Assembly (NCBI GenBank): GCA_026416055.1 | Contig: JAOAFX010000001.1 | Coordinates: 5,833-69,832, forward strand | Direction: 5' to 3' | Source: a candidate division WOR-3 bacterium | Lineage (GTDB): Bacteria > Hydrothermota > Tepidihabitantia > SM23-42 > JAOAFX01 | DNA length: 64,000 nt | Shown here: positions 1-56,060 of the stretch, piece after piece | How positions within the stretch are numbered: position 1 is the first letter of the stretch | Layout: each line of letters opens with the position of its first letter | Notes under the pieces: model-generated | What the model saw: only the letters and a program-made list of their open reading frames with translations | Databases searched by the model: none | Told to the model about the DNA's origin: nothing | Program-made: the position numbers and the translations under genes

Positions 1-530
1 CAGAGATGGGTGTCAATTATGTTTTTCTTTTGGGGCAATTCCATAATATGAAAATTTACCTTTTGAGATAAAATATCCCAGACCTTCTTTTTTGCATCAC
101 AGGTCGTTTCACCGACGGCGAGGCTCTTGATTGGTGCATAGAGACAGGTTTTGGAAAATGCAAGCCCCAGGGTTGATTTCACGAGCGGGCAGATATCTCT
201 GGGAAACATCTTTTCAGCGTAAGGAACAGAGAAATTCGTTCCCCCGCATAATGCGATTGGAATCATATCGAGTGCCATTATGATTTCTTCTGGTACATAG
301 ATACAGAAAAATCCCACAATCTTTTTACCCTTTGATTTTTCTTCAAGCAGCTCGGCAACCCTACCACCATGCGATTCATGAAGAACATTGTCAAAATAGT
401 CCATTGTCCTGGGACGATTCTTTTGTTTACCAACAGTATTTTGAAATCCTTTGTTTATGTAATTCAGGACCTCATTGTGCAAATTTACATCAAGTCCTAA
501 TTCCTGCCACATCTTTTCGTAATTATTCAT
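1..530 (-). CDS. 2-hydroxyacyl-CoA dehydratase / BcrC-BadD-HgdB family protein, N-terminal part; the gene runs off the left edge
   Basis: Absent from the ORF track because there is no stop in the window. Reverse translation from ATG 530..528 gives MNNYEKMWQELGLDVNLHNEVLNYINKGF...KGKKIVGFFCIYVPEEIIMALDMIPIALCGG...GETTCDAKKK, a pattern typical of HgdB/BcrC-type subunits. Its start overlaps the stop of the upstream gene as ATGA (527..530). Confidence 0.55.
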   Translation of the reverse strand, partial: MNNYEKMWQELGLDVNLHNEVLNYINKGFQNTVGKQKNRPRTMDYFDNVLHESHGGRVAELLEEKSKGKKIVGFFCIYVPEEIIMALDMIPIALCGGTNFSVPYAEKMFPRDICPLVKSTLGLAFSKTCLYAPIKSLAVGETTCDAKKKVWDILSQKVNFHIMELPQKKNIIDTHL

Positions 531-829
531 TTTTTTTCCTTTTTGAAAAATAGTTCGCAAAAACAATGCCCGTCTTTTCTGACTTCTTCATCCAGAGTGG
601 GGCAGGGGCAAAGGACGTCTTTTTCTGGATTTAACGGTTCGCTTTGCTTGCAAGGGCAATAGTATTTTCCATATTCAAGATAGTTTATCGTCATTAAACC
701 AATCACTTTTTTTACCCGGCTTAGCTTTTTGTTAAAGACATAACCTTTCTGCCTCGCGATCTTTATGAGCCTCTCATAATTTTTATTATACTCCTTGGTG
801 CCAACGATTTTATCCCAGGGATTAGGCAT
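527..829 (-). CDS. ferredoxin:thioredoxin reductase catalytic-subunit-like protein (FTR-like disulfide reductase)
   Basis: 100 aa with the cysteine pattern YCPCK...LCPCP...GHCFCELF, matching the CPC...CPC...CHC signature of FTR catalytic subunits. Translationally coupled to both neighbouring ORFs. Confidence 0.55.
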   Translation of the reverse strand: MPNPWDKIVGTKEYNKNYERLIKIARQKGYVFNKKLSRVKKVIGLMTINYLEYGKYYCPCKQSEPLNPEKDVLCPCPTLDEEVRKDGHCFCELFFKKEKK

Positions 830-971
830 AAAGCCCCCTTGCGGTATGGCATTTAAATTCAGTGTATTTGTTTACTGCGAAAAGAATGAATCTCTTATGG
901 AGGTTGGAAGATAAGAATTGCTCTTTTATCTTTCCATAGACCCGACCGGGCCTAAATACCCGGCGGATCAT
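822..971 (-). CDS. mini-ORF A (49 aa, MIRRVFRPGRV...), leader ORF of the FTR-like operon
   Basis: SD AAGGAG lies 7 nt before ATG 971..969. The stop TAA (824..822) overlaps ATG 829 of the next gene. The track start at 1022 lies upstream of the predicted TSS (~1018), so the ORF was trimmed. The N-terminus is shared with mini-ORFs B and C. Confidence 0.35.
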   Translation of the reverse strand: MIRRVFRPGRVYGKIKEQFLSSNLHKRFILFAVNKYTEFKCHTARGLYA

Positions 972-984
972 TTCCAAACTCCTT
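939..984 (-). promoter_or_regulatory. SD-AUG-GC-palindrome module, copy A
   Basis: Minus strand reads AAGGAGTTTGGAAATGATCCGCCGG-N9-CCCGGTCGGGTC. The 12-mer CCCGGTCGGGTC and the 9-nt spacer are the same as in copies B and C. Confidence 0.6.
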
Positions 985-1024
985 TGTAAACCATATTCCA
1001 GTGGGTAATAACTATCATACACAG

Positions 1025-1052
1025 ATTATATTTAAATATTGGTTTATGTCAA
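1025..1052 (-). promoter_or_regulatory. sigma70-type promoter, TTGACA-N16-TATAAT
   Basis: -35 at 1052..1047 and -10 at 1030..1025, both perfect consensus hexamers. Confidence 0.6.
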
Positions 1053-1141
1053 TAGAATGCTTACGATGTTTCCCTACGAGACTTAAGACTAAAGTCTAAT
1101 GATGGCTTGACTGACTTTTTCCTTTTATCTGTCTTGCGAAT

Positions 1142-1891
1142 TCACTTGACAATTCTTCTTTTCACTACCGCCTGAATAACTTCTTTTGTTTCCATATCCT
1201 GGACGAATGCAACAACCCCTAATTTATTGACATTCCAGTTAGACTGAATCAAGCAGTTCCTTTCTTCAATCAGGGAATCAGGATAGACTAAATTCACCGT
1301 TATACCCTTTGCATCCGGAATCATCTTGCGCATTACGAAATAGAAAATGGAATCAGGGGCACCTACCTGTTTGAAAAATACGCTATCTTCAACAAGGACT
1401 ATAAACAACCGATGCTCAGAATCTTTTATTGAATCAATCACAACGATATTTACTTTCAAAGAAACGACATCTCCTTTTAAGGTTGATTCAAGATTCAATC
1501 GCAACTTGGTCTTTCTGTTTCTCTCGCTGATGATGCAATTTTTATAAACTGGGTAATTATCCTCGGGCTTTTCTGTCTGAATTTTTTGCAATCCATCAAA
1601 TACTACAATCGGTGAGGTCTGGATATTATAAAGGGATTCGCGAACTGCAACATAAGGTGGACTTAATGTATCACCGAGGGCACGGCGGTGATAGGCAATT
1701 ACAGCAAGACTATCACCATATTCTTTTAGTAGACTATCAAGCGCATGTTCTGCGTAGGGACAATAAACACAGCGCGCAAAAGTAAAAAACTCAGCAAGGA
1801 CAATCCTGTCTCCTGGTTCAATTTTGATTTGCGGACTGTCAGAGCAGAATGTAATTAATAATATTGCTGTAAAAATTATAGTTTTTTTCAT
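1142..1891 (-). CDS. secreted, possibly lipidated thioredoxin-fold CxxC protein, Omp28-related
   Basis: Signal peptide MKKTIIFTAILLITFCSD. The motif AEFFTFARCVYCPYAEHAL (CxxC) resembles the N-domain of the 595-aa protein two genes upstream. 4-nt overlap with the preceding gene. Confidence 0.55.
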   Translation of the reverse strand: MKKTIIFTAILLITFCSDSPQIKIEPGDRIVLAEFFTFARCVYCPYAEHALDSLLKEYGDSLAVIAYHRRALGDTLSPPYVAVRESLYNIQTSPIVVFDGLQKIQTEKPEDNYPVYKNCIISERNRKTKLRLNLESTLKGDVVSLKVNIVVIDSIKDSEHRLFIVLVEDSVFFKQVGAPDSIFYFVMRKMIPDAKGITVNLVYPDSLIEERNCLIQSNWNVNKLGVVAFVQDMETKEVIQAVVKRRIVK

Positions 1892-2619
1892 TGGACTTTT
1901 ACCACCTTTCTATGAAATATATAGCCATTGTTTTTCAATTCAATGAAATACACGCCTTCCGGAACGGGCTTACCTGAGTGATCATCACCACGCCACACGA
2001 TTTCAGAAGATTGATTACTGGTTATATTGTCAAATCGTTTAATCAGCTGCCCTTTTGAATCAAAAATCTTTATCGAAGGTTGTAATCTTAAATCAGGCAT
2101 CCGGAATTTTATTACGAGGTAATTGTTGAACGGAATTGGATATAATTCAAATTTATAAATCGGGTCCTTCGTTTTGTAGATAAAAACTCCTTGTTCCATT
2201 GCTGCAATAACAGTTATTGAATCCCTTAAATTGGGGCTGCGAACCGATCTTACTTTTAGATTTACAACTTCAGTTCCCCATACTCCGGTTGCAGGGTATA
2301 TTGAAACATCAATTCCTGAATCTATTGCTCCAGGAGTAAGATAACTATAAAGAATTATTCCTGGTTCTGCACATTGTCCACCAGCACAATACAATTCAAA
2401 CCATCCAGGAACGCTATCAATCACCCGACAGTCAAATGCGTAACTATCGGGTTGGGATCCGGTATTCGTGAGCCGGAAACGGAATATAAAATAGTCTATT
2501 CCGGTCTGGAATGTATCACTTACGCAGACAAAGTTGAAACTATACTGGGCAGATAACATCGTGGTGAGCCCAACTAACCACAGTACCACTTTTTTGCCGA
2601 ACATATTAACCTCTTTCAA
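1888..2619 (-). CDS. secreted protein with a T9SS C-terminal sorting domain
   Basis: N-terminal signal peptide. The C-terminus ...PIPFNNYLVIKF...IKIFDSKGQLIKRF...WRGDDHSGKPVPEGVYFIELK... is a typical type-A T9SS/FlgD-Ig-like CTD. Confidence 0.6.
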   Translation of the reverse strand: MKEVNMFGKKVVLWLVGLTTMLSAQYSFNFVCVSDTFQTGIDYFIFRFRLTNTGSQPDSYAFDCRVIDSVPGWFELYCAGGQCAEPGIILYSYLTPGAIDSGIDVSIYPATGVWGTEVVNLKVRSVRSPNLRDSITVIAAMEQGVFIYKTKDPIYKFELYPIPFNNYLVIKFRMPDLRLQPSIKIFDSKGQLIKRFDNITSNQSSEIVWRGDDHSGKPVPEGVYFIELKNNGYIFHRKVVKVQ

Positions 2620-2651
2620 ATGGGGAGGGCAATCGCCCTCCCCATTATTGA

Positions 2652-4439
2652 TTATCGGACAATGACAACCTTTTCCAGAATGGTTTCTGATTCAGATTCT
2701 AATTTCACAAAATATATACCCGAAGGAAGCATCTTGCCATTAGAATCATCGCCATTCCAGATTATCACTGGATTCGCAGTGAGTGATTTAACAAGACGGC
2801 CAGATGCATCGTATATCTTAACGGATACAGACATATTATGAAAATTGCTGGACTGGCAAATTATCGCCACTTTTTCGGTAAATGGATTGGGTGTTATACT
2901 TAAAGTTAACCGCTTATTATTTTCTTTAGTTTCAATTCCTACCGGTCTCGGCATATTCACATCGTCGATATACCATCCTTCCTGGACTATGGAAGCATCG
3001 CTGATAAACCGGAATCTTATTCTCACGGTCTGTCCTGAATAACTGGTAAGGGGATATGACAGTTGAGTCCAGGCACTTTGTGTACCGGTGAATTTACCAA
3101 GGGTTTGCCACCACCCTGAACCATTGTCAATTTCCACATATCCATAATCCCAGCCTGCTTCAAGACTATACTGATGCCAGAGTTTCAAGGAACTATCCGG
3201 TGTTGCAACAAAGAAAACTGAAATCAAAGAAGCATCATTTTGATTTGTGTACTGCCAGGAACCCTCAACCCCGCAATACCAGGAGCGGGTTGGTGAATAA
3301 CTTTTGTATGTCGTGATATGCCAGTTATCATTCGTGCCAGAATGGGTCCAGTTATCCTGACCTGATTCCATATTGTCTGAAAAACCAGGGCTCCTCGTAA
3401 TCATAAAAGGAATCGTATCAATTTTTGAGCCAAAATTCAAAAAGAAAGAAACCAGTCTTGGTGTCGGGCAGGCATCACTGATTGTGAAATCGCAGATATT
3501 TACCGTATCTACATCACCGGGTCTAATTTCTACAGTTTGTGGAGTAGCACCACTAATTGTTATGTATGGATCTGAGCAGGTTACAGTGGTACTACCTGTA
3601 TAAATACCGTCTCTTAAATTTTTGCCATAGACATAAATTCTAATCGCCTCACCGGGCTCAGCCCACCGATTGTGGTTGCCTGCCGTTTCTGTAATATTCA
3701 ATCCGTAATAGTCCATTCCGGGGATGGGCACTATTCCAATCTCTGCACCCTGGTAAATCTCTCTGTTTGCGGCCTGAACAAATACGATAATTTTACAATC
3801 TTTTTCTTTCCAGTTTGAAGCGATTGTGAAGTTTCTGGACCTTGATATACTGCTATTTGCCGGAATGGTAACTGCTTCTCCATTCGCATCCGGCACCATA
3901 TCTCTCATCAAAAATTCTAACTTAGACATTCCCTGCCAGCTATATGGAATATTATTTTCAACAATCACAAAATGGAGTGTGCCACTTATCGGACTGGAAG
4001 TAATGTTCAGAATCGTGGCATTTACCGTTCCGGTATTACTAATCGTATCATAGTTACAGGTGAGACTGATATCCAGTGGACTTGAAATGTTCAACCTGTA
4101 TGCTATAGTGTCTCGGTAAATGGCATACATTGTGCCGAAACGTAAACCTCCGACTACTCTTCGTACTCCATCAAATATTGTTGTTGGATATCCGCTCACA
4201 CTGTAATATGATAATCGTGCTGCAGCCTCGGTACTATAGAATGGGTCGGATGTGGATGGATGGTAAGATATTACTACAACTGAATCATAACTTCTTGTAT
4301 AATTCTCATCCAGCGCACGCGCTGCTCCTGGACAGTATTGACACCAGGTTGCAGTAAAATTTTCACATACGACAACGCGCTGGGCAGCAAAGGCTAAGGT
4401 ACCTATTATTATACATGATAATAGCACTATTTTCTTCAT
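2652..4439 (-). CDS. multidomain T9SS cargo: Omp28-like thioredoxin-fold CxxC domain, Ig-like and MAM/choice-of-anchor-like beta-sandwich, T9SS CTD
   Basis: Signal peptide, then ENFTATWCQYCPGAARAL (CxxC). The middle reads ...FSDNMESGQDNWTH...GWYIDDV. The C-terminus ...ITPNPFTEKVAI...VKIYDASGRLVKSL...WNGDDSNGKMLPSGIYFVKL is a T9SS CTD. SD GGAGG precedes ATG 4439. Confidence 0.6.
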   Translation of the reverse strand: MKKIVLLSCIIIGTLAFAAQRVVVCENFTATWCQYCPGAARALDENYTRSYDSVVVISYHPSTSDPFYSTEAAARLSYYSVSGYPTTIFDGVRRVVGGLRFGTMYAIYRDTIAYRLNISSPLDISLTCNYDTISNTGTVNATILNITSSPISGTLHFVIVENNIPYSWQGMSKLEFLMRDMVPDANGEAVTIPANSSISRSRNFTIASNWKEKDCKIIVFVQAANREIYQGAEIGIVPIPGMDYYGLNITETAGNHNRWAEPGEAIRIYVYGKNLRDGIYTGSTTVTCSDPYITISGATPQTVEIRPGDVDTVNICDFTISDACPTPRLVSFFLNFGSKIDTIPFMITRSPGFSDNMESGQDNWTHSGTNDNWHITTYKSYSPTRSWYCGVEGSWQYTNQNDASLISVFFVATPDSSLKLWHQYSLEAGWDYGYVEIDNGSGWWQTLGKFTGTQSAWTQLSYPLTSYSGQTVRIRFRFISDASIVQEGWYIDDVNMPRPVGIETKENNKRLTLSITPNPFTEKVAIICQSSNFHNMSVSVKIYDASGRLVKSLTANPVIIWNGDDSNGKMLPSGIYFVKLESESETILEKVVIVR

Positions 4440-4466
4440 TTTAACCTCCTTTCTTTATTTTAAGTG

Positions 4467-4694
4467 CTATTGATTTTTAATTTTTTTTCTCTTATCACCC
4501 CCTTTCGTTCTGGTCAATTCGTGATTGATCAAAGGAATGATTGTATTAATTTTTGGAATACGATATTTTAAATATTTTTTAAAAAGTTCGTAAAGAATTT
4601 CGATGGAATGTTGATTGGTATTTAATAAAGGAGGTTGATTAAAATTATGGCATCTTTTTTTGACCCGACCGGGTCTTTTAATCCGGCGAGTCAT
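4467..4694 (-). CDS. mini-ORF B (75 aa, MTRRIKRPGRV...)
   Basis: SD GGAGG lies 6 nt before ATG 4694. This ATG overlaps the TGA of mini-ORF C (ATGA). The body is lysine-rich and low-complexity, with no recognisable family. Confidence 0.3.
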   Translation of the reverse strand: MTRRIKRPGRVKKRCHNFNQPPLLNTNQHSIEILYELFKKYLKYRIPKINTIIPLINHELTRTKGGDKRKKIKNQ

Positions 4695-4705
4695 TTGATG
4701 CCTCC
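4662..4705 (-). promoter_or_regulatory. SD-AUG-GC-palindrome module, copy B
   Basis: Minus strand reads GGAGGCATCAAATGACTCGCCGG-N9-CCCGGTCGGGTC. With the preceding GA it forms the 14-bp near-palindrome GACCCGGTCGGGTC. Confidence 0.6.
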
Positions 4706-4810
4706 GTTGAAGTATTTGATATAGTGTGGAATATTTAAGATTAACGCAGTGGAGTAGACAATGTAGTATGGTACTTTGACCCGACCGGGTCCGGATGTCC
4801 GTCGAGTCAT
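4691..4810 (-). CDS. mini-ORF C (39 aa, MTRRTSGPGRV...), below the track's size cut-off
   Basis: SD AAGGAG lies 7 nt before ATG 4810..4808. My translation is MTRRTSGPGRVKVPYYIVYSTALILNIPHYIKYFNGGIK*, ending in a TGA that overlaps the ATG of mini-ORF B. Confidence 0.3.
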   Translation of the reverse strand: MTRRTSGPGRVKVPYYIVYSTALILNIPHYIKYFNGGIK

Positions 4811-4823
4811 TTCCACACTCCTT
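4778..4823 (-). promoter_or_regulatory. SD-AUG-GC-palindrome module, copy C
   Basis: Minus strand reads AAGGAGTGTGGAAATGACTCGACGG-N9-CCCGGTCGGGTC. Confidence 0.6.
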
Positions 4824-4863
4824 TATTGTGATTTTTCCAGAAGTCTATCCAATTCACATTTTA

Positions 4864-4891
4864 ATTATATTAAAATTTTCTTTGTTGTCAA
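4864..4891 (-). promoter_or_regulatory. sigma70-type promoter, TTGACA-N16-TATAAT
   Basis: -35 at 4891..4886 and -10 at 4869..4864, both perfect consensus. It would drive mini-ORFs C and B and the T9SS/CxxC operon. Confidence 0.6.
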
Positions 4892-4921
4892 GCAGTCAAA
4901 GTAAATTGCCAAATAATGACT

Positions 4922-4987
4922 ACTCTCCGCTTTTTAGTTTAATGTTTTTTTGTTTTCCAGCAGGGGCGACTTCCCGGTCGCGATAAT
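4922..4987 (+). repeat. 66-nt intergenic repeat, copy 1 (inverted repeat GCGAC-N6-GTCGC followed by GATAAT)
   Basis: Aligns with 25091..25152 with 4 substitutions and one 4-nt indel (my hand alignment). Confidence 0.7.
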
Positions 4988-5002
4988 CATCTGTCCATCC
5001 CT

Positions 5003-5200
5003 TTGACAAAAGGGAATTTTCAGTATGAAAACAGTCTTCACCCAGCGGGTAATCAATTTTTAAACAAACCTGATGATTACGGCCTAACTATCTTTGGGTG
5101 CATTGGCGCTATTTCCTATGGCGAATTACCAATGTCTTGTTTTACTTGTAATGGCAGAGTTTACGAGGAAGTAGATGGGATTATTAATTTTTTAAACTAA
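5003..5200 (+). CDS. hypothetical 65-aa ORF; the C-terminus resembles a Trm112-like zinc-ribbon remnant
   Basis: TTG start. The ending ...SCFTCNGRVYEEVDGIINFLN resembles the C..C...Y...DGI..FL ribbon found at the N-terminus of some methyltransferases, but no MTase domain follows. Weak call. Confidence 0.2.
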   Translation: MTKGNFQYENSLHPAGNQFLNKPDDYGLTIFGCIGAISYGELPMSCFTCNGRVYEEVDGIINFLN

Positions 5201-5370
5201 GAATATCCAGCCGATAGTCTATCTTTCACCCTATAATACTTATACGCCCAAAAAATAATAATATTCTTGATTTTTAAAAGTGGAGAGGAGCCAGGTCAAA
5301 ATATCAGGCAATATATTTAAAAGTGTGAAAATTTATCTAAAGTGCTATATCGGGAAGTAATAATCTTCAG

Positions 5371-7176
5371 TTAGTCATGAGTTCCTTTTGAATTGATGAT
5401 TTTCAAATAACGGTATAATTGTGCCCTTGATATCTTTAATTCATTGCAGGTTTTAATTACATCACACCCATTCCGCTGATAACATTCAAAAATGAGTTTT
5501 GCCCGATACCTTCTTACCTTCTCTTCTATTGAAACTGGCTGATGATTTTCCAGACCAAGGTCTTTTAATTCAATATAGCCATTTTTGCAGCGCAAAAATG
5601 CCTGTTCTAATATTTTTTCAAGCTGGCGGACATTTCCGGGAAAATCAAATTCTAACAGACGTTTCTTTGCACTTTCGGTTATGCCAGCAAAATACCCTCT
5701 ATATCTTTCTTTTATTTTAAGCAACAGATGCTCAATCAAAAGAGGAATTTCATCCCGGCGCTCACGAAGAGGTGGAATTTCAATTTTGGGAGAGTGAATC
5801 CGGTAATATAAATCTTCTCTGAATTTACCCTGTGCTACAAGTTCCTCAAGGTTGCGATTGGTGGCAAAAATAAATCGGACATTGACAACCCTGCCCTCAT
5901 TACAACCCAGGGGGATTACCTTTTTATCCTCAATCACTCTTAAAAGTTTTGCCTGTACATTGAGCGGTAACTCAGCAATTTCATCAAAGAATAGTGTACC
6001 ATTATTGGCAAATTCAATCTTTCCTGTTTTGTCATAACGGGCATCGGTGAAGGCACCCCTTTTATAGCCAAACAATTCTGACTCAAACAGGTTCTCTGGA
6101 ATAGCTGCACAGTTCACCACCACAAATCTTTCACCCGCCCGTGAACTTTCATTGTGAATTGCGGCAGCAAGCAGATCTTTTCCGGTGCCACTTTCTCCAA
6201 TGATCAAGAGATTTGTATCCTGGATAGCAATTTTTTTCGCAGTCTCTTTTATTGTTTCAAGCCCGATTATATCGTCAAATGTATAAGGGGCACGCAACGA
6301 TAAACTTCTTTCTTTATTAACGGGAGAATATACCGGTTCAAAAATAAAGATGTATTTGTCTTCATATTCCTTTTTTAATACAAAAAACTTCATATGCAAA
6401 TTTTCTGATTCAAATATTTCGTTGATAATTGGTTTTTTTCTTACAATTTCCTCGTCAAATTTTTCCGTGATGTTCTTTCCAGTATTGAAATGTAGAAGTT
6501 TCTTTGCCTTCTCGCTGAGCCAGAGTATCTTTCCCTGATTATCAGTAATCACAAAAATGAGATTGAGCAATTTCGCCAGATCAGTATAAAAATTGAATTC
6601 AAATGTCTTCCGGTATTCTTTCTGAATTATTCCGGAAAGAATCTTCACAAGGGCAAAGGTATAAGGATGTCCCCTTTTTTCCGGATGGACGATCACAATC
6701 GTGCCAAGCAATTCTCCATTGTCCAGTATCGGTGAACAAAAACAGGCACCCGATTGAAAAATTTTTAGATAATATTCTTCCCCTTCTACATATACTGGCT
6801 TGTGATAACGCAGGGCAAGGGCAACGGCATTGGTCCCAGCATCTTCTTCGCGCAGTGACCCCCCCTCACCAAGACCAATTTTACTGCGGCTTTGTAAGAT
6901 GTGCCTGGGACCGATTGCCTTCAAAATATAGCCATCCCTGTCTGTTAATACCAGAATTGATCCGCAGAGTTTGAAAGTTTCGCTGCACAATTTCATATAC
7001 GGAAGGGCGGATTTTATTAAGGATTCATTAATTTTCTGGCGGTGGAGTAATTCTGAACGGCTGAGAGTATTTGTAATACATGGCTTATCGGGGTTCAAAC
7101 CCATTTTCTTACAACGTCTCTTAGACTCATTTATCCATCTTTTTCTTTCAGATGATTCAGACATAACTCCAACCAC
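5371..7176 (-). CDS. sigma-54-dependent transcriptional activator (AcoR-like GAF N-domain, AAA+ domain, Fis-type HTH)
   Basis: GESGTGKDLLAAAIH...VVVNCAAIPENLFESELFGYKRGAFTDA is the sigma-54 interaction domain. The C-terminal ISRAQLYRYLK is an HTH. The start may instead be ATG 7164 (MSESSERKRW). Confidence 0.85.
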   Translation of the reverse strand: MVGVMSESSERKRWINESKRRCKKMGLNPDKPCITNTLSRSELLHRQKINESLIKSALPYMKLCSETFKLCGSILVLTDRDGYILKAIGPRHILQSRSKIGLGEGGSLREEDAGTNAVALALRYHKPVYVEGEEYYLKIFQSGACFCSPILDNGELLGTIVIVHPEKRGHPYTFALVKILSGIIQKEYRKTFEFNFYTDLAKLLNLIFVITDNQGKILWLSEKAKKLLHFNTGKNITEKFDEEIVRKKPIINEIFESENLHMKFFVLKKEYEDKYIFIFEPVYSPVNKERSLSLRAPYTFDDIIGLETIKETAKKIAIQDTNLLIIGESGTGKDLLAAAIHNESSRAGERFVVVNCAAIPENLFESELFGYKRGAFTDARYDKTGKIEFANNGTLFFDEIAELPLNVQAKLLRVIEDKKVIPLGCNEGRVVNVRFIFATNRNLEELVAQGKFREDLYYRIHSPKIEIPPLRERRDEIPLLIEHLLLKIKERYRGYFAGITESAKKRLLEFDFPGNVRQLEKILEQAFLRCKNGYIELKDLGLENHQPVSIEEKVRRYRAKLIFECYQRNGCDVIKTCNELKISRAQLYRYLKIINSKGTHD

Positions 7177-7343
7177 CTGTTGAATTTATTTTTTTAGAGA
7201 ATCAACCATAAAAAAAGTATGTATAAGGCACCGGTATTTAAATTCAGTATAGATTACTATACTACCAGACGGGGCCTTATACTAAGGAAAGATTATACAT
7301 ATAAGTTGTGCATTGTCAATATACACCTATTAGCCTAAAAAAA

Positions 7344-7952
7344 TTACTTATAACTAAAGACAGCATAATTTCTTTCTCTATCTCCGCGCCGATAAGAGTA
7401 GAAATAATCTGGATTACAATATGTACAATAATTCAATTCAGCAATAAGATTTTCCTTTCCCAGTTCCTGTAGCACAGCCTTTTTTAAATCAAGATAGATC
7501 TTATTATATTTTCTTATCACTGCCTCCGGATATTTCTCACTGAATAGCCTTGCAACATCATTTTTGACTTCATAACAGCAGGGTCCAATACAGGCACCCA
7601 TGACATATTTATACTCCCTCATAATGGTCAGAGCTTTTGCCAGAATTCCTCTGATGATTGAACGCCATCCACAATGAAGAAGCATAATTTTTTCCTGAGA
7701 AAAGATATAAACTGGAAGACAGTCAGCAACCTTTACACCGATTGACTTACTTGATGTCATCAGCCCATCACCAGTGGTCTTTGTATCGGTATCAATATCT
7801 ACAATGATATCTGAATGAATCTGGGTAAGTAACGCGGGCTTAAAGGTATACAAAAATTTCTGCGTTCCAACCTTTGTTGAATAAAGAAAAATTTTATTTT
7901 CAAATTCACAACGAAAATACTTTAAATTCTCATCTTCAATTAACTGCCACAT
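7344..7952 (-). CDS. pgeF: peptidoglycan editing factor PgeF / YfiH (DUF152 laccase-domain) family
   Basis: VADCLPV...LLHCGWRS...CIGPCCYEV...CTYCNPDYFYSYRR motifs. Confidence 0.7.
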   Translation of the reverse strand: MWQLIEDENLKYFRCEFENKIFLYSTKVGTQKFLYTFKPALLTQIHSDIIVDIDTDTKTTGDGLMTSSKSIGVKVADCLPVYIFSQEKIMLLHCGWRSIIRGILAKALTIMREYKYVMGACIGPCCYEVKNDVARLFSEKYPEAVIRKYNKIYLDLKKAVLQELGKENLIAELNYCTYCNPDYFYSYRRGDRERNYAVFSYK

Positions 7953-9633
7953 TTTTTAATTCCTTAATCTTTAACATTATCTTTTTTTTGCCGACGAGTG
8001 AATCTTCAAATATTGTATACAAACAATCAATTCGAGTCTTTCCAGGCACCATTGTCATTATCTTATCCGCGTGATAAAAGGCGATTGCGGGAAACACGAC
8101 TCTTTCCTGGCGCAACGAGAATTTCAAGTGATCACTGCCCACTACCACAGGAACACCTACAACTTCAAAATTTTCACCCAAAAATACTGGCTGGGGGTTC
8201 TCCATTCCGGTGGGTTCAAAATATTTCAAAAAATAAACAATCTCTTCATTTATATCCTTCAAATCAAGCTTTATATCATAATAATGGCGCTTCATAAAAA
8301 TATGCTCATCAAATCCCTGTGCGTATTGATTTATCTTCTCAACAAAGGAATCTAAGTTGCTTTTAGAAAGTTCCAACCCTGCTGCCTGTTTATGCCCGCC
8401 GAATTTCATTAACAGGTCAGCACAGAAGTTCAGTGCCTCCGCAATATCAAATCCACTGACCGAACGGGCTGAGCCCTTGGCGATTTTTTCTTTTAATGTC
8501 AGAACTATCGCTGGTTTTGCATACTCCTCAACAATTCTTGATGCTACAATGCCGACAACGCCTTCATGCCAGTTTTCTTTACCCAGGACTATGACTCGCT
8601 TATCATACAGATGTTTTGCCTCAATCATATTAACTGCCTCCTGTAGAATTTCATCTTCCACTTTCTGGCGTTTTTCATTATCGGCCGAAAGTTCCTGGGC
8701 AAGTAAACAGGCCTTTTGATAGTCATCGGTAAGTAAAAGTTCTAAAGCCGCCTTTGCATCACGTAATCTACCACAGGCATTTATCCTTGGCCCGATTATG
8801 AACCCGAGATGGTATGCAGTCAGTTCACCCTTCAGGCCGGAAACTTTTATCAGTGCCTGGATACCCGCCTTTTTACTTTTCTGCATCTTTTTTAACCCGA
8901 GTTTTACCAGATAACGATTTTCCCCGGTCAAAGGTACTACATCAACCACACTGCCCAATGCAACAAGGTCAAGGTCGGAGAGAAGTTCTGCCTCATCAAG
9001 ACAGAGCTTCCGGTAAATACCCTGGAGAAATTTAAAAACTACTCCAACCCCGGCAAGTTCTTTGAATGGATAATTACAGTGGGCCAATTTAGGATTGAGT
9101 AATGCGTCAACAACCGGAATTTCCGATTTCGGATTGTGATGGTCACAGATTATCACATCTAAATTCTTTGATTTCGCATAGTTCAGCTCTTCAAATGCAG
9201 TAATGCCACAATCAACAGTAATCATCAGTGTGCATCCATTCTGCAGGGCATATTCAATCCCCAATTTTGAAACCCCGTAACCTTCTATAAGGCGGTGGGG
9301 AATATAACAATACACATCTAATCCAAGTTTTTTAAAATTTCTGTATAACATAGCCATACCTGTTATTCCATCGGCATCATAATCACCGTGGATTAATATC
9401 CTTTCTTTTCTTTCAAGTGCCTTTTCAATCCTTGCCACTGCTTTTTCCATATCTGAAAACATGAATGGGTCATGAAGTTCTGCAGGAGTTGGCGCAAAGA
9501 ATGTTTCTATCTCCTGGGCAGTCTTATACCCCCGATTTTTTAAAATTTGAACTATTACGGCAGGAATTCTCTTGCCCCGGATGATGAGATCTTCACCGAC
9601 CTCACCCTGATGTTTACCCACCCAGATAGACAT
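7936..9633 (-). CDS. recJ: single-stranded-DNA-specific exonuclease RecJ
   Basis: 565 aa with the DHH motifs ILIHGDYDADGITG, VDCG and ICDHH, plus a DHHA1 region. Confidence 0.85.
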   Translation of the reverse strand: MSIWVGKHQGEVGEDLIIRGKRIPAVIVQILKNRGYKTAQEIETFFAPTPAELHDPFMFSDMEKAVARIEKALERKERILIHGDYDADGITGMAMLYRNFKKLGLDVYCYIPHRLIEGYGVSKLGIEYALQNGCTLMITVDCGITAFEELNYAKSKNLDVIICDHHNPKSEIPVVDALLNPKLAHCNYPFKELAGVGVVFKFLQGIYRKLCLDEAELLSDLDLVALGSVVDVVPLTGENRYLVKLGLKKMQKSKKAGIQALIKVSGLKGELTAYHLGFIIGPRINACGRLRDAKAALELLLTDDYQKACLLAQELSADNEKRQKVEDEILQEAVNMIEAKHLYDKRVIVLGKENWHEGVVGIVASRIVEEYAKPAIVLTLKEKIAKGSARSVSGFDIAEALNFCADLLMKFGGHKQAAGLELSKSNLDSFVEKINQYAQGFDEHIFMKRHYYDIKLDLKDINEEIVYFLKYFEPTGMENPQPVFLGENFEVVGVPVVVGSDHLKFSLRQERVVFPAIAFYHADKIMTMVPGKTRIDCLYTIFEDSLVGKKKIMLKIKELKNVAVN

Positions 9634-19224: not shown

Positions 19225-21285
19225 TCAATTTCTTGCGGTTTCAATTTTAACAATCTGATATCCTTTTCCATCTATCGACACCGTTTCTCCCGGTTTCTTT
19301 CCCAACAATACATCCCTGGCAATTGGCGATTCACAGGAAATTATATTTTTTGCAAGGTCAGCATCCCAGGGACCAAGGATTACATATTCAAGGATGCTAT
19401 CATCTTGTAAGGATTTGAGAATCACCTTCGTTCCAACGCCCACCCTGGAGGTATCAATATTACTGAAATCAATTAATTTTGCCCTGCGCAATTCAGATTC
19501 AAGCATCCTCACCTTCTGGTATAATTGATCCTGCTTTTCTTTTGCCGCTTTATATTCAAAATTTTCACTCAAATCCCCATATTCACGTGCACGGCTGATT
19601 TCTTTTTTATTCTCCGGAATTTCCACGGTGAGGAGGTGTTCAAGTTCTTTCTTCTTACGCTCCAGTGCTTCTGCGGTTGTATAAATGTAGTCTTCCTTTT
19701 TCTCGTTTAAATCAGGAAAGTAATAATCAATTATCCGTAGATAATCACCTTTCTCATATCCTTTGAGAACCGTTGATTTGACCAATGCTTCCCTTATTCT
19801 CGCAACTTCGGTGATTTCGGTATTCTTTATGATGGAATCAAATCGTTCCAGGGTCAAGGCTTTAAGAAAATTCGGTTTGGCGTTTTTGATGTATTCAAGA
19901 TTGTTGATCAGACGCGGCAAATATCGGGGTTCAAGAAATTCCTTTAAAAAACCACCTGTCAGTTTTTTTAATATATACACAAAAACACATGGATATTTCT
20001 GGGGCATTGATAAAGCTGATTTATAAAATTCATCTAAGCTATATCCTGAAACTATAAGTTCTTCTTCAATCTTTTCAATCAACTTTGTTTCATCAGTAAG
20101 CGCCATTATTTGCTGGAATATCCTCTGCCAGTTCTGAGGTTCCCTTTTTTTTATTTCCTGTAAGAACTTTTTTTTATGTTCATAGTTTTTCAAATTGAGC
20201 AGTAAATTTTCGTAGGTCTCATATTTTAAAATATCATCAATTGTATAACTTATACCTGTTTTGCCGTACTCTTCACATAGATAATAGATATCAAGACATC
20301 GTGCCGGATGTCTTGGATATTCTTCATTCGCTGTAGAGATGAGTAAATTTATAATCTCGTTAAGCAATTCAGGATACTCTTTTGCACACCGCTCAGCATA
20401 AAGGTACTTTTCATCAATATCCCCTTTCTGGAATGAAACAATGAAAGATTCCTTTTTATTTCCATCTGTTATGTATTGATAAATCTTCTGCCCTTTTCTT
20501 GATTCTACCTTTACGCACTCATTCTTTTCAAGTTTTTTCCTGACCTTTTCCCAGTATCTATCAATCTCACCCTCATCTATTATTCCAGTCAGGTGCTTTT
20601 TGATATCTCCGGAGCCAAGCGGTTCCTGGTAGCTTTTCAGCATAAATATCACAAGACCCACAGGGTCTTCCTCTGCCAGTTTCTTCAATTCTTCAATGTT
20701 TTTGTATTTCTTGAATAAAAAAGTCCCTTCGGGTGCAGGTTTCAGGAGTCCTTGTGCCACTTCGAATTTTGCAAAATAGCCCTTCTGCTTTTGAAAATCA
20801 AGCACGACCTCACGCCGTTCGGGATTCATGGAGACGACTTCACCCAGACCAAATTTTTCAAAATAAAAAACACGACCGATATCATATTTTAAGAATTCTT
20901 CAAGCCGTTCAAGACTCTTAAAAATATGCTCACCTTTTTCAATCCCTGATAGTTCAATAAATCTTTCAATCCGTGGATTATCATTGTATTTCGTTTTATA
21001 TAATTCCACGATTGCCTTTCTCAATAATCTATCATCTTCGGTGAAGTAAGCCATATGTTTATAAACTTCGATTGCTTCATCAAATCGCCTCTGAATTTTC
21101 AAATGAGAAGCAAGGATTTCAAGAAGCATAAAGGCAGATTTCGTTTCCTTTATTTTCTTCAATTCATCGGCTATGCTCAGGAATTCCTGTACAGGACTAT
21201 CCCCGGCTTCAACCATTTCTATCCATAAATTTTCTACTTCAGCAAGATTTCTTTCTTCAATCAATCTTTTTATTTTTTCAGTCAT
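19225..21285 (-). CDS. GreA-family transcript-cleavage factor with a ~530-aa N-terminal extension
   Basis: The C-terminal ~155 aa (...AREYGDLSENFEYKAAKEKQDQL...GPWDAD...ISCESPIARDVLGKKPGE) form GreA/GreB coiled-coil and globular domains. The N-terminal part has no family I recognise. Confidence 0.65.
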   Translation of the reverse strand: MTEKIKRLIEERNLAEVENLWIEMVEAGDSPVQEFLSIADELKKIKETKSAFMLLEILASHLKIQRRFDEAIEVYKHMAYFTEDDRLLRKAIVELYKTKYNDNPRIERFIELSGIEKGEHIFKSLERLEEFLKYDIGRVFYFEKFGLGEVVSMNPERREVVLDFQKQKGYFAKFEVAQGLLKPAPEGTFLFKKYKNIEELKKLAEEDPVGLVIFMLKSYQEPLGSGDIKKHLTGIIDEGEIDRYWEKVRKKLEKNECVKVESRKGQKIYQYITDGNKKESFIVSFQKGDIDEKYLYAERCAKEYPELLNEIINLLISTANEEYPRHPARCLDIYYLCEEYGKTGISYTIDDILKYETYENLLLNLKNYEHKKKFLQEIKKREPQNWQRIFQQIMALTDETKLIEKIEEELIVSGYSLDEFYKSALSMPQKYPCVFVYILKKLTGGFLKEFLEPRYLPRLINNLEYIKNAKPNFLKALTLERFDSIIKNTEITEVARIREALVKSTVLKGYEKGDYLRIIDYYFPDLNEKKEDYIYTTAEALERKKKELEHLLTVEIPENKKEISRAREYGDLSENFEYKAAKEKQDQLYQKVRMLESELRRAKLIDFSNIDTSRVGVGTKVILKSLQDDSILEYVILGPWDADLAKNIISCESPIARDVLLGKKPGETVSIDGKGYQIVKIETARN

Positions 21286-53181: not shown

Positions 53182-53776
53182 ATGCAGTAACTGCCATTCA
53201 AAATATAATGTTGATGAAAACAAAATACCACCGGCTGGCGTAAAGGTAAAATGTCCGAAATGCCAGAACATCATGACTATTAAAAAAGAAATATCCCGGG
53301 TTACACCAGTGCCTGAACAACCAAAACCCCCCCCTCCACCTCCACCAAAGGTAGAACCACCCCCCCCACCAAAAGTAGAACCACCGCCTTCACCGGTACC
53401 CGAGCCTACAGTGCCACCACCGCCCGAGCCAAAAATTCCTGAACCACCCAAGGTTGAGGTTCCTTCCTCGACCCAGGGTGTTGAAATCATTTCCAAACCT
53501 CAACCCCAGCCAGAAATGAGTGAAGAAGATAAAAAGTGGCACGAAAGGGCAAGAAGGCTCGCCAAGGCACTCGCCTCTGACCTGGTGCTCTACAATCAGG
53601 AAAAAGTAGAACAGGGTCTGCGTGATGGAACACTTGCACAGTTGCTCGGTGCCGAAATTAAACGCTCCTGGGAGTATTATTGCCAGCAAATTCCTAAACA
53701 TATTGTAGAAAGCACTGATTATTTTCGTGAGCAATTAAATAAAATCGTAGGTAAAGGGAAAGAGATCTTTCGGTAA
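53171..53776 (+). CDS. MJ0042-type zinc-ribbon protein with a Pro-rich linker and conserved C-terminal helical domain
   Basis: MIVECSNCHSKYNVDENKIPPAGVKVKCPKCQN, then a PPPKVEPPP tandem repeat, then ...RARRLAKALASDLVLYNQE... Confidence 0.55.
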   Translation: MIVECSNCHSKYNVDENKIPPAGVKVKCPKCQNIMTIKKEISRVTPVPEQPKPPPPPPPKVEPPPPPKVEPPPSPVPEPTVPPPPEPKIPEPPKVEVPSSTQGVEIISKPQPQPEMSEEDKKWHERARRLAKALASDLVLYNQEKVEQGLRDGTLAQLLGAEIKRSWEYYCQQIPKHIVESTDYFREQLNKIVGKGKEIFR

Positions 53777-53974: not shown

Positions 53975-54436
53975 ATGAACATCACGAAGATTTTTGCAAA
54001 AGTTAAAAATGCAATAGTCAGAGTGGAAACAGAGGGAGGCTTCGGAACTGGGATTGTAGTTGATAAAAGAGGGATTATTCTGACGAATCACCATGTGGTT
54101 GAACTGGAGAATATTGCTACTTTATATTTTTATAATGGTAAAATTGAAATCGGTAAAATCATCTATGCGAATCGTGCAAGAGATATCGCTTTTATCTATA
54201 TAAACCAACAGAATTTGTATGAAGCAAAATTGAGCTACTTACAAAAGACAAAAATTGGAGAAGAAATCATTGCTATTACAAATCCTGGTAGTAGTGGTGG
54301 TCCTATTATTAATCGAATGGGAGAAGTTGTGGGCATGACTTGTATGGGTTTTTCGGAAGGATTGAACTTAGCCATTCCGATCAGCGATATAAAGTCTTAT
54401 TTGTTAGATATCAAAAAAATGCTTCAACTGGTATAA
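53975..54436 (+). CDS. trypsin-like (S1/HtrA-type) serine protease domain; 5' part of a gene broken at an A7 run
   Basis: GTGIVVDKRGIILTNHHVV (His), ARDIAF (Asp), GSSGGPII (Ser). The frame ends 15 nt after the A7 run at 54413..54419. Confidence 0.6.
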   Translation: MNITKIFAKVKNAIVRVETEGGFGTGIVVDKRGIILTNHHVVELENIATLYFYNGKIEIGKIIYANRARDIAFIYINQQNLYEAKLSYLQKTKIGEEIIAITNPGSSGGPIINRMGEVVGMTCMGFSEGLNLAIPISDIKSYLLDIKKMLQLV

Positions 54437-54803
54437 GTCAGCCAAATACTGCCCAATTTGTGGAAATGCGAATAATAACCAAAATAAATTCTGTGAATAC
54501 TGTGGTTACAAGTTACCCTTGCAAACTGAACTGGGAGAAAAAATCAAAAAAAGGAAATCTCAAATTAAAGATAAATCAGTATGTAGAAATTGCCTGAAAA
54601 TCAATTCTAAAGAAAGCACAAAGTGCACCTTTTGCGGTGCACTTCTCCATTCTGTAAAAATGAGGAACACCAGGTGTGAACAAATACCAACCAAAAATAT
54701 CGTATGTCAAGTATGTAAAAAAAGGAATCGTATGATTGACCACTATTGCAAAAATTGTGGTGCAGTTTTGTTTAACATAAGGAGGGGGCATAATGAATCT
54801 TAG
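54408..54803 (+). pseudogene. triple zinc-ribbon (DZR-like) domain ORF with no start codon; the +1-frame continuation of the protease gene
   Basis: The frame is open from 54408 and reads ..KYCPICGNANNNQNKFCEYCG..VCRNCLKINSKESTKCTFCG..VCQVCKKRNRMIDHYCKNCG. There is no ATG/GTG/TTG before the first ribbon. The track only reports 54519..54803. Confidence 0.5.
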
Positions 54804-55525
54804 AAGAATTAAAAATATAAAATATTATATAAAAAAACTTGAAAATCGAGAAGAAAGGGTAGAAACATTTGTGCAACTGGCAAAAACCGGCTCTTCTGAG
54901 GTAATAAAACCTCTTATAGAAACACTTAATAAAATGAGTTTGAGAGAGGCTTTATCTGTTGCTGAGTATTTTGCTAACTTCGGTTAAAAAAATAATTCCT
55001 TATCTACTTGCCCTGATAAAACTAACACAAAAATTTGCTGTTTATACATCTGCCATTAGGGCATTGGGTATTACAATGAGTGAAGAGGGCTACAGATTTT
55101 TATTTCCATTAATAATTAAGAAAGAAAAATGGATTCTTGACAATGATATTGTCCGTCAGTAAATAATTGATGCGATTGTTCGATGTGGCAGCAAACATTT
55201 AAAAGAATTAATGGAAATGTTAGAAAGTTCTGCTTGGAGAGTAAGAATCGGTGGTGTGTATGTCTGTGGTAAGATTGCCGCAAATATTAAAGACAATAAG
55301 GCACTGATTTCTCAGTTAAAAAATAAACTGCGGAGCATTGCAAAGAATGATCGTAGTGGTAAAGTTAAAAGATTAGCGAGAATGGCACTTGGCTGGATTA
55401 TTGGAGAAGAAGAGATAGTTGATAGTTATGAACACGCAATGAATATAATTGGACGCGAAATACACGGTGAAATTAGAGAAAAAGATTTATATTCAAAATA
55501 CAGGGAAGTCTTAAAGCAATTTTAA
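54793..55525 (+). pseudogene. HEAT/PBS-lyase-like repeat protein broken into three ORFs
   Basis: SD GGAGGGGG precedes ATG 54793. The frame changes at TAA 54985..54987 (FANFG* followed by KKIIPYLLALIK in the +1 frame). An in-frame TAA at 55160..55162 separates ..DIVRQ from IIDAIVRCGSKHLKELMEML... Confidence 0.5.
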
Positions 55526-55922
55526 TGAATTAGGCTATTCTCAGTTACCGGAGAGAAGTGAAAATAATTGCTGGGTAATAGATAATCTACCTTACAACTA
55601 TAAAATTGGTGTATTAATAAATGAAGATAGTGAGACTGGTGAGGGTTATTTAAACATTTACACCTTTATTTGTAAATTACCGGAGAAAAATATTCTTGCT
55701 TTTTATCGTAAGTTACTTGAATGGAATGAATACATTTTTACAGGCACGTCAAAACTTTTTGTTGTTGATAATCGTGTTTTTATTATAGAAGTTCGGAAAC
55801 TTGAATCGCTTAATGTTGAAGAAACTGTCGAGGCAATAAAAAGATTGGCAGAAAGAGCCGGTACATTTCGTGATAATTTGATTGATGAATTCGGCGTCAG
55901 CGCAGTGAATAGAATAAATTAA
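55515..55922 (+). pseudogene. YbjN / T3SS-chaperone-like domain ORF with no canonical start codon
   Basis: 135 codons open (..ENNCWVIDNLPYNYKIGVLINEDSETGEGYLNIYTFICKLPEKNILAFYRKLLEWNEY...) with no in-frame ATG at all, so it is absent from the track. Confidence 0.4.
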
Positions 55923-56060
55923 TTAATTTTTGAACCGAATTGCATTTATGATCGAAGGATATAAGAAAGGGCAATATTTTATGATCATTCTGAATAAAGT
56001 AACAGATTATTTTCAAGACTGACCATAGTGATGAGAAGATTTGCTAATAAAGTTGCCAAA

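Follow-up and report, generated by a model that had tools for sequence, protein, structure and literature searches.

What role is played by a short GC-rich element that recurs ahead of two operons in the DNA of a candidate division WOR-3 bacterium? The stretch analysed, hereafter the window, comprises 64 kb of contig JAOAFX010000001.1 (positions 5,833 to 69,832; assembly GCA_026416055.1), and the element opens three mini-ORFs (short open reading frames) in it. The analysis was computational and drew upon metagenome-assembled genomes (MAGs) and metagenome contigs of this one phylum. We found that the element is an RNA module, in which a start codon overlaps a UGA and is followed, at a fixed distance, by a covarying hairpin which fits the published model of the bacterial selenocysteine insertion sequence (SECIS). 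From its sequence and its gene context, the module is rather probably the central part of a leader that gauges how well the cell can decode selenocysteine (Sec) and that switches on the operons behind it when selenium is scarce.

The 12-mer CCCGGTCGGGTC occurs exactly three times in the window, always on the minus strand, at 939-950 (copy A), 4662-4673 (copy B) and 4778-4789 (copy C). Only 0.05 occurrences were expected and none of 100 dinucleotide shuffles reached three, which bears out the initial annotation, made from the sequence alone, in having singled out this repeat. Each copy is preceded by an ATG (at 971, 4694 and 4810, respectively), placed 18 nt ahead of the 12-mer and itself preceded by a Shine-Dalgarno (SD) sequence of AAAGGAG type. 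Perfect sigma-70 promoters (TTGACA-N16-TATAAT, 12 of 12 consensus positions) stand ahead of copies C and A at 4891-4864 (-) (TTGACA 4891-4886, TATAAT 4869-4864) and 1052-1025 (-) (TTGACA 1052-1047, TATAAT 1030-1025). Both the start sites and the promoters had been described correctly, and the same promoter geometry was seen in every related leader.

Mini-ORF C (4810-4691, 39 codons) and mini-ORF B (4694-4467, 75 codons) have an ATGA in common, the stop UGA of C (4693-4691) overlapping the AUG of B. Mini-ORF B ends just before the gene of a 595-aa protein, 27 nt ahead of its start, and mini-ORF A (971-822, 49 codons) overlaps the ATG at 829 of the gene of a 100-aa protein and stops 5 nt inside it. 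The translational coupling suggested by this arrangement was found again in relatives. In all genomes, these relay mini-ORFs are open as far as the start of the next gene, with no in-frame stop in 1593 codons as against 122 and 139 stops in the other two frames, and neither their length (37-126 codons) nor their sequence is conserved. Mini-ORFs A, B and C share no similarity past codon 11, none of the mini-ORFs matched a Pfam family, and a mini-ORF profile searched against 5.8 billion proteins returned only 11 proteins, all of them WOR-3 mini-ORFs; two of these are hypothetical proteins on a WOR-3 contig matching the window. The conserved unit is, as had been proposed, a short nucleotide module and not a protein family. 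The spacer ahead of the 12-mer, described as exactly 9 variable nucleotides, is semi-conserved in relatives, where it mostly reads GTATTYAGR. The variable bodies of the relay mini-ORFs (822-971 and 4467-4810 in the window, and their homologues) are A-rich and G-poor (12.5% G, compared to 21.5% in long ORFs of ordinary coding sequence); this composition fits an unstructured tract, possibly one for Rho loading if left untranslated.

The initial annotation had left room for a local duplication, but the module is kept in about 20 related genomes or contigs. When one genome per species was scanned with the pattern ATG-N3-CGNCGG-N9-CCCGGTCGGGTC, 23 loci matched, and the low-GC loci were all WOR-3 MAGs carrying the whole module including the SD. 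More distant WOR-3 loci, reached through homologues (57-67% identity) of the ferredoxin:thioredoxin reductase (FTR)-like protein of the second operon, also carry the element. It does not behave as a repetitive extragenic palindrome mobilised by its associated transposase (REP/RAYT) or as the end of an insertion sequence, as had been considered, since it has only two conserved contexts per genome, keeps a fixed distance from the SD-ATG, and comes with no transposase domains. The GC-rich matches to the strict pattern (Alphaproteobacteria, Actinomadura and others) had no SD or module context and were set aside as unrelated. They form two sets, each with conserved flanks of its own (e.g. gaaacgccatcgggcaaATGGCGCGACGGCGAGAATTTCCCGGTCGGGTC). 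One comes from Alphaproteobacteria MAGs (loci L001-L003, L009, L010 and L022); the other comes from Actinomadura, Spirillospora and Actinocrispum (L007, L011, L013, L019 and L021), with the pattern present twice per contig, 3-5 kb apart.

We aligned 35 distinct copies from WOR-3 genomes in a fixed register. The invariant columns were U18-G19-A20, G41-G42-U43 in the loop, C38, C40, G47 and one G of the SD; positions G6, G7 and G9 of the SD (GGAG at 4821-4818 (-) in copy C) are invariant or nearly so. The first base of the start codon is either A or G, and the conserved triplet is therefore UGA, present as [A/G]UGA 20 nt before the loop in all 35 copies (4810-4807 (-) in copy C, where the AUG of the mini-ORF overlaps the UGA of an ORF upstream). 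This overlapping UGA and the 16-codon upstream ORF that ends with it are two parts of the module beyond those described in the initial annotation. The hairpin that follows reads GACCC-GGUC-GGGUC in copy C (4791-4778 (-), loop 4786-4783) and copy B (4675-4662 (-), loop 4670-4667), and UAGGCCC-GGUC-GGGUCUA in copy A (954-937 (-), loop 947-944); each loop lies 20 nt past the UGA, which for copy B is the UGA ending mini-ORF C. The inner five stem pairs were formed in 172 of 175 cells of the alignment, with exchanges at pair 39-46 (C-G in 31 copies, U-A in 4), pair 37-48 (A-U in 30, G-U in 4, G-C in 1) and pair 36-49 (G-C in 30, A-U in 2, G-U in 1), and the covariation score was matched by only one of 500 shuffles. 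A covariance model found 37 instances at >=38 bits, exactly three of them in the window, and the next best score was 12.9 bits. Similarly, when about 300 kb were scanned generically for TGA-N20-stem-GGTY-loop, nothing but the modules matched.

The near-palindrome GACCCGGTCGGGTC had been taken to fit either an RNA hairpin or a site for a dimeric DNA-binding protein, and these data uphold the former. A DNA operator, at which a dimeric transcription factor would act as a roadblock downstream of the promoter, would agree with a GC-rich inverted repeat in AT-rich surroundings behind strong promoters, and an Rrf2 regulator does lie near one distant locus. We hold it to be extremely improbable, because the GT at the centre is never AC, all 35 copies have the same orientation and lie at the same distance from the start codon, the stem bases change and yet stay complementary, and G-U wobbles, which are meaningless in duplex DNA, take the place of pairs. 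No regulator is conserved beside the modules.

Selection on the peptide, suggested earlier, could not be upheld; a few synonymous differences (TTT/TTC, AGA/AGG) speak for it. Codons 8-11 (CCC GGT CGG GTC) show no synonymous variation in the close clade despite a codon usage of 0.15-0.39, while such non-synonymous changes as R to C, R to L, T to I and P to L, which keep the pairs, are tolerated. The N-terminus itself varies (MTPHQF, MICLVY, MTHHTY, MTCREF), up to MKCVFSQPGRV and MTLHTSGLGRV (P to L) in distant copies. Since the codons are fixed while the peptide varies, several changes preserving base pairs, selection evidently acts on the RNA rather than on the peptide. A signal at the peptide level, with the N-terminus MTRRxxRPGRV serving as arrest peptide or as a tag, is accordingly hard to credit; the motif TRRxF resembles a twin-arginine translocation (Tat) motif superficially, and no hydrophobic region follows the 'RR'. 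A Tat signal, an arrest peptide and a precursor of a ribosomally synthesised and post-translationally modified peptide (RiPP) were all dropped for want of their defining features. The same applied to a frameshift or bypass site, an intrinsic terminator, guanidine-II-like tandem hairpins and an FTR variable subunit.

The loop of the E. coli fdhF SECIS is GGUC. Bacterial SECIS of this type resemble the modules in having a hairpin just past an in-frame UGA, a small G-[G/U] loop with its GU about 20 nt from the UGA, a stem whose sequence is free to covary, and a UGA-proximal lower region that is able to pair and that the ribosome melts. The published bacterial model (bSECIS; PMC13188914) calls for an apical loop 3-9 nt long, a stem 4-16 bp long, a loop that opens with G[G|U] (the G within its first two positions) and lies 16-37 nt past the UGA, and a minimum free energy (MFE) no higher than -7.5 kcal/mol. 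All 35 copies have a 4-nt loop on a stem of 5-9 bp and exactly 20 nt between UGA and loop; 34 of the loops read GGUC and one reads GGUU, and the local hairpin has an energy of -8.5 to -10.8 kcal/mol at 37 C. Elsewhere, the SECIS is described with a stem of 6-8 bp and a conserved G about 20 nt past the UGA, at the mRNA entrance (PMC4605307), and the contacts of E. coli SelB are given as G23/U24 of the loop and a bulged U17 (PMC8659212). In its sequence features, then, the hairpin agrees with every criterion of a bacterial SECIS, and the statement of the initial annotation that no described leader or operator resembles the motif no longer holds, as the hairpin and its overlapping UGA fit the published model. 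The modules differ from known SECIS genes in that the UGA lies outside any conserved protein, ends either a relay ORF or a predicted-leaderless ORF of 12-16 codons, and overlaps a start codon, and in that the product past the Sec is short and unconserved. In addition, the lower pairing of the module competes with the apical hairpin rather than stacking beneath it, and most copies have no bulged U.

At every copy, a stop-free ORF, predicted to be translated, ends at the UGA. At first-position copies this is an upstream ORF which we call uORF0; at B-type copies the UGA is the stop of the preceding mini-ORF. In the window, uORF0-C (4857-4807 (-), 16 codons, VNWIDFWKNHNKGVWK, UGA 4809-4807) begins with a GTG 6 nt past the -10 box and contains the SD of mini-ORF C, and uORF0-A (1018-968 (-), 16 codons, MIVITHWNMVYKGVWK, UGA 970-968) begins with an ATG at the same distance. 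A uORF0 in the frame of the UGA is present at every first-position copy, measuring 16 codons in the close clade and 12-15 elsewhere, and its start (ATG, except for the GTG of copy C of the window) lies 5-8 nt, mostly 6, past the -10 hexamer in all 24-25 distinct first-position leaders. Since the ATG falls at the expected transcription start, uORF0 is probably leaderless. Over the 13 codons before the UGA, the uORF0 frame of 24 distinct leaders has no stop, compared to 25 and 17 stops in the other frames. An ATG-TGA start-stop pair at 4859-4854 (-) of the window overlaps the GTG of uORF0-C, and which of the two forms the 5' codon would depend on where the transcript truly begins. Within uORF0 of A type, a small internal hairpin shows compensatory changes between genomes (AUGAACC/GGUUCAU, UUGAACU/AGUUCAA and AUGACCC/GGGUUCAU), at about 340-320 (-) of L018, 100-125 of L026 and 6785-6810 of L029.

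What normally marks a selenoprotein gene is an in-frame UGA together with a SECIS-like hairpin, and uORF0, the Sec and the following 12-25 codons could be read as encoding a functional product of about 30-40 aa. Such genuine small selenopeptide genes are very unlikely. In the Sec frame the next stop comes 2-27 codons past the UGA, the product is not conserved beyond what the RNA signals need, and it has no family matches and no Cys-containing homologues. A selenoprotein gene is recognised by a UGA that aligns with a Cys between conserved flanks, and the products of uORF0 and the Sec frame gave no such alignment; being without homologues and unconserved, they were not classed as selenoproteins.

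The lineage decodes Sec. At four WOR-3 loci, SelD carries an in-frame UGA close to its N-terminus (..G-U-ASK..), with SECIS loops GGUUU or AGUUG, and owing to this UGA it had been called as an N-terminally truncated ORF: in L017, which belongs to the same clade as the window (1655-615 (-), TGA 1613-1611), L034 (about 3500-4588), L036 (about 4350-5345) and L037 (about 4480-5549). SelA is encoded at L035. An Omp28-related protein of the type IX secretion system (T9SS) is itself a selenoprotein in L036 (gene 2406-4211, TGA 2499-2501, ..EEFTATT-U-PYCPG..). Its TGA aligns with the first Cys of the WCQYCP motif in the orthologous 595-aa protein of the window (..FTATT-U-PYCPG.. compared to ..FTATW-C-QYCPG..). 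The gene has the SECIS CGGCAAG-AGGU-CUUGCCG and no leader module, and gene calling had broken it up into two genes, of 31 aa and 499 aa.

In the window, the genes that follow the leaders fit Cys counterparts of such selenoproteins. Operon 1 encodes the 595-aa secreted T9SS Omp28-related protein with its WCQYCP motif (4439-2652 (-); Pfam Omp28, MAM and Por_Secre_tail), a 243-aa T9SS-tail protein (2619-1888 (-)), which is kept in synteny, and a 249-aa Omp28-related protein with an RCVYCP motif (1891-1142 (-); assigned by Pfam and NCBIfam). The first gene of operon 2 encodes the 100-aa FTR-beta-like protein (829-527 (-); PF02943), whose motifs CPC..CPC..CHC are all-Cys. The best NCBIfam match of the 595-aa and 249-aa proteins was an Omp28-related selenoprotein, and the sole match of the 100-aa protein was an FtrB family double-selenoprotein; these matches, all below the cutoff, are consistent with Cys homologues of selenoproteins. 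The HGD-D protein of operon 2 is a double-cubane reductase with an activase partner. In close relatives the cluster goes on with a methyltransferase, YdjY proteins, the putative selenium transporter YedE and SelD, and in distant relatives SelD lies immediately upstream of the leaders and SelA downstream. YedE, HGD-type (HGD-D) proteins and activases have been linked to selenium loci (PMC5322559), and in Methanococcus selenium starvation induces Cys isoforms and yedE, the sensing signal being unknown (PMC11097638).

Synteny is kept at both operons. Operon 1 consists of the promoter, mini-ORF C, mini-ORF B, an Omp28/MAM/T9SS protein of about 600 aa (WCxYCP), a T9SS protein of about 245 aa and an Omp28 protein of about 250 aa (RCVYCP); operon 2 consists of the promoter, mini-ORF A, the FTR-beta-like protein, HGD-D and a BcrAD-type ATPase. 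At L035-L037, two modules stand in series ahead of the FTR-like gene, as they do before operon 1 in the window. An extra module in L027 (GGGACUC-GGUC-GAGUUUC, 6210-6422 (-)), which has a promoter of its own and a uORF0 of 12 codons, drives a divergent Omp28 operon, and the two operons thus need not be in tandem. In the distant relative L034, a 55-aa Cys-rich ORF (6721-6888; CDKC..CGCEPCEIICCG..CCCSK) without a family match lies between the leader mini-ORF and the FTR-like gene.

The start regions of the mini-ORFs are strongly structured. Between -15 and +15, the mean unpaired probability was 0.36 as compared to 0.53 in 19 control genes (p = 2e-6). The sequence GAYYCGCCGGG of the start-codon region can pair with the 3' arm of the SECIS-like hairpin to form a longer, alternative hairpin, which is the MFE fold in the clade of the window (-15 to -22 kcal/mol). 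In copy A its 5' arm GAUCCGCCGGG (969-959 (-)) pairs with 950-939 and buries the AUG/UGA; the equivalent arms of copies C and B are 4808-4798 and 4692-4682. This hairpin is 91% paired in the close clade. It was demoted from a conserved element to a clade-specific accessory or alternative fold, because its only changes are wobbles, some B copies have it in degenerate form and distant relatives lack it. Pairing of the SD:anti-SD region with downstream sequence gave only a trend (mean z = -0.88, 6 of 27 at p < 0.05) and was not retained; in some leaders the SD is sequestered by upstream sequence.

Structured start regions could also be explained without selenium, as the operator of an unknown RNA-binding protein or as an RNA thermometer, with uORF0 and AUGA acting as a constitutive device for reinitiation. 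The crude estimate of the optimal growth temperature, about 65 C, at which the long hairpin has only -9 to -13 kcal/mol, and the looseness of the bSECIS model speak for such a region. We nevertheless regard it as unlikely, since the GGU loop, the spacing of the UGA, the Sec-decoding lineage, the Cys-homologue genes downstream and the neighbouring YedE, SelD and SelA would all have to be coincidences, and a thermometer would not need an invariant loop on a covarying stem.

We propose instead that the leader is a cis-acting selenium sensor, a 'selenocysteine attenuator' with a single checkpoint or two successive ones, in which recoding of the UGA is itself the read-out; the chances that this specific form is correct appear about balanced. 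Transcription would start at the AUG of uORF0 or 1-2 nt from it, and the ribosome would begin at the 5' end, translate uORF0, melt the long hairpin and meet the UGA with the GGUC hairpin at the mRNA entrance. With the hairpin beginning about 15-18 nt past the UGA and its loop 20 nt on, the geometry would be that of a SECIS recruiting SelB-GTP-Sec-tRNA(Sec). If Sec-tRNA(Sec) is scarce, RF2 would terminate uORF0 at the UGA and reinitiation would take place at the overlapping AUG/GUG, aided by the strong SD 8 nt upstream; the relay mini-ORF would be translated and the ribosomes passed to the operon through the stop/start overlap. If Sec-tRNA(Sec) and SelB are available, the UGA would be read as Sec, or the SelB complex would occupy the hairpin, and after Sec insertion the ribosome would run on in the other frame, stop 2-27 codons later and miss the relay start. 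In the clade of the window, the long hairpin may block independent initiation at the SD until a uORF0 ribosome melts it, and operon 1 would have two serial checkpoints, C and then B. When selenium is limiting, the Cys versions (Omp28-related and FtrB-like) and the double-cubane reductase with its activase would be made, and in relatives YedE and SelD as well. The operons are predicted to be on under selenium limitation, in line with their gene content and with the sign of the selAB feedback in E. coli.

This E. coli element is the nearest known system. In the 5'-UTR of selAB, a SECIS-like element represses translation by way of the SelB complex, according to two papers that cite Thanbichler and Boeck 2002 (PMC13449736, PMC8124441). 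As outlined there, it resembles the modules in placing a SECIS-type hairpin at the translation start of selenium-pathway genes; in the modules the hairpin occupies positions +18 to +35 of the relay ORF, and the AUG has its SD 8 nt upstream. In these accounts, it involves no decoded UGA, upstream ORF or relay ORFs, and it controls selA and selB, whereas in the modules an invariant in-frame UGA overlaps the start, and they govern Cys homologues and a cluster of reductase, YedE and SelD. With this precedent, the modules could be SelB operators only, the SelB-GTP-Sec-tRNA complex on the hairpin blocking the adjacent AUG while the UGA and uORF0 are not used for decoding Sec. The position of the hairpin, at the edge of an initiating ribosome, would suit this, as would the two copies with a stop 2-4 codons past the UGA and the reported inefficiency of Sec insertion. 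We consider it rather unlikely, since it does not account for a UGA that never changes, exactly 20 nt before the loop, beside a start codon with a variable first base, nor for the ORF without stops that in each case runs from the predicted transcript start to this UGA, nor for the constant use of the preceding ORF's UGA by second-stage modules.

Several observations weigh against a Sec-decoding leader. Within the 64-kb window, no sel genes and no tRNA-Sec were found, and the loci of the relatives did not yield a tRNA-Sec either. The bona fide SECIS of the same lineages have their loop 22-32 nt past the UGA, as against 20 nt in the modules, and their loops are AGUUG, GGUUU or AGGU, as against GGUC. 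The bSECIS model is permissive. When positions 1-8000 of the window were searched with Rfam (4227 models including SECIS_1-5, E up to 10), the module was not matched, and a chance snoRNA match was obtained elsewhere. Sec insertion is reported to be inefficient in E. coli (PMC8659212), which would limit the range of a switch working purely by read-through and termination. Finally, the Sec frame stops 2-4 codons past the UGA in two copies (L034 and L029), and uORF0-C of the window starts with GTG.

Leaders that sense decoding through a very short ORF are otherwise familiar. In trpL and hisL, a leader peptide ORF carries the codon for which decoding capacity is sensed, and in the autoregulation of prfB (RF2) the outcome at an early UGA, termination or recoding, sets expression. 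The modules share with these the short sensing ORF, but they would sense Sec-tRNA(Sec)/SelB, they show no evident terminator/antiterminator pair, and the read-out appears to be translational; no terminator-like site as in trpL-type attenuation was found on the sense strand between the leaders and the genes. The Sec/Cys switch of Methanococcus (HrsM, LysR type) resembles the WOR-3 leaders in gene content, turning on Cys isoforms and yedE when selenium is scarce; it is transcriptional and uses a protein repressor, whereas the sensor proposed for WOR-3 would be a cis-acting RNA/ORF using the Sec-decoding step. In fdhF(Sec) of Treponema primitia, selenium control operates by coupling of translation and transcription (PMC3892789). 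There, as proposed for the modules, what the ribosome does at a SECIS-directed UGA sets downstream expression. The UGA of fdhF(Sec), however, belongs to the selenoenzyme gene itself, where selenium switches expression on, while the modules form a dedicated leader at which selenium is predicted to turn it off. A regulatory leader made of a UGA plus a SECIS was not described in the literature covered by a full-text search, and the selenocysteine attenuator has a roughly even chance of being a truly novel principle of regulation.

The way in which a prokaryote senses its selenium status has yet to be settled, even for Methanococcus with its well-studied switch of Sec and Cys isoforms (PMC11097638). 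If the proposal is true, the sensor would be the decoding step itself, Sec-tRNA(Sec)/SelB at the UGA of a dedicated leader. It would define a selenium-starvation regulon in an uncultivated phylum (the Omp28-related and FtrB-like Cys isoforms, the double-cubane reductase and its activase, YedE and SelD), provide functional leads for its poorly understood genes, and extend the use of SECIS outside selenoprotein genes beyond the lone case of E. coli selAB. For annotation it would serve as a warning that predictions of a SECIS plus a UGA can be regulatory, and that mini-ORFs called 'hypothetical proteins' would be relay ORFs.

Some further features of the window were recorded. A sigma-54-dependent activator with a GAF domain (5371-7176 (-)) is encoded on the strand of the operon-1 leader, directly upstream of it; a link to a sigma-54 promoter or activator was dropped, as the activator is not a conserved neighbour at other loci. 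A scan of the window for selenoproteins gave a single weak candidate at 53392 (-), which is not credible. Apart from the modules, the window has no TGA-plus-hairpin candidate but this one (GGTGGGG-GGGGTGG-TTCTACC), which looks spurious and lies near a region at about 54000-56000 with low GC (0.33) and a strong positive GC skew. At 19228-21285 (-), a 686-aa protein combines a C-terminal GreA domain with a long N-terminal extension, a fusion of the GreA/unknown-domain type.

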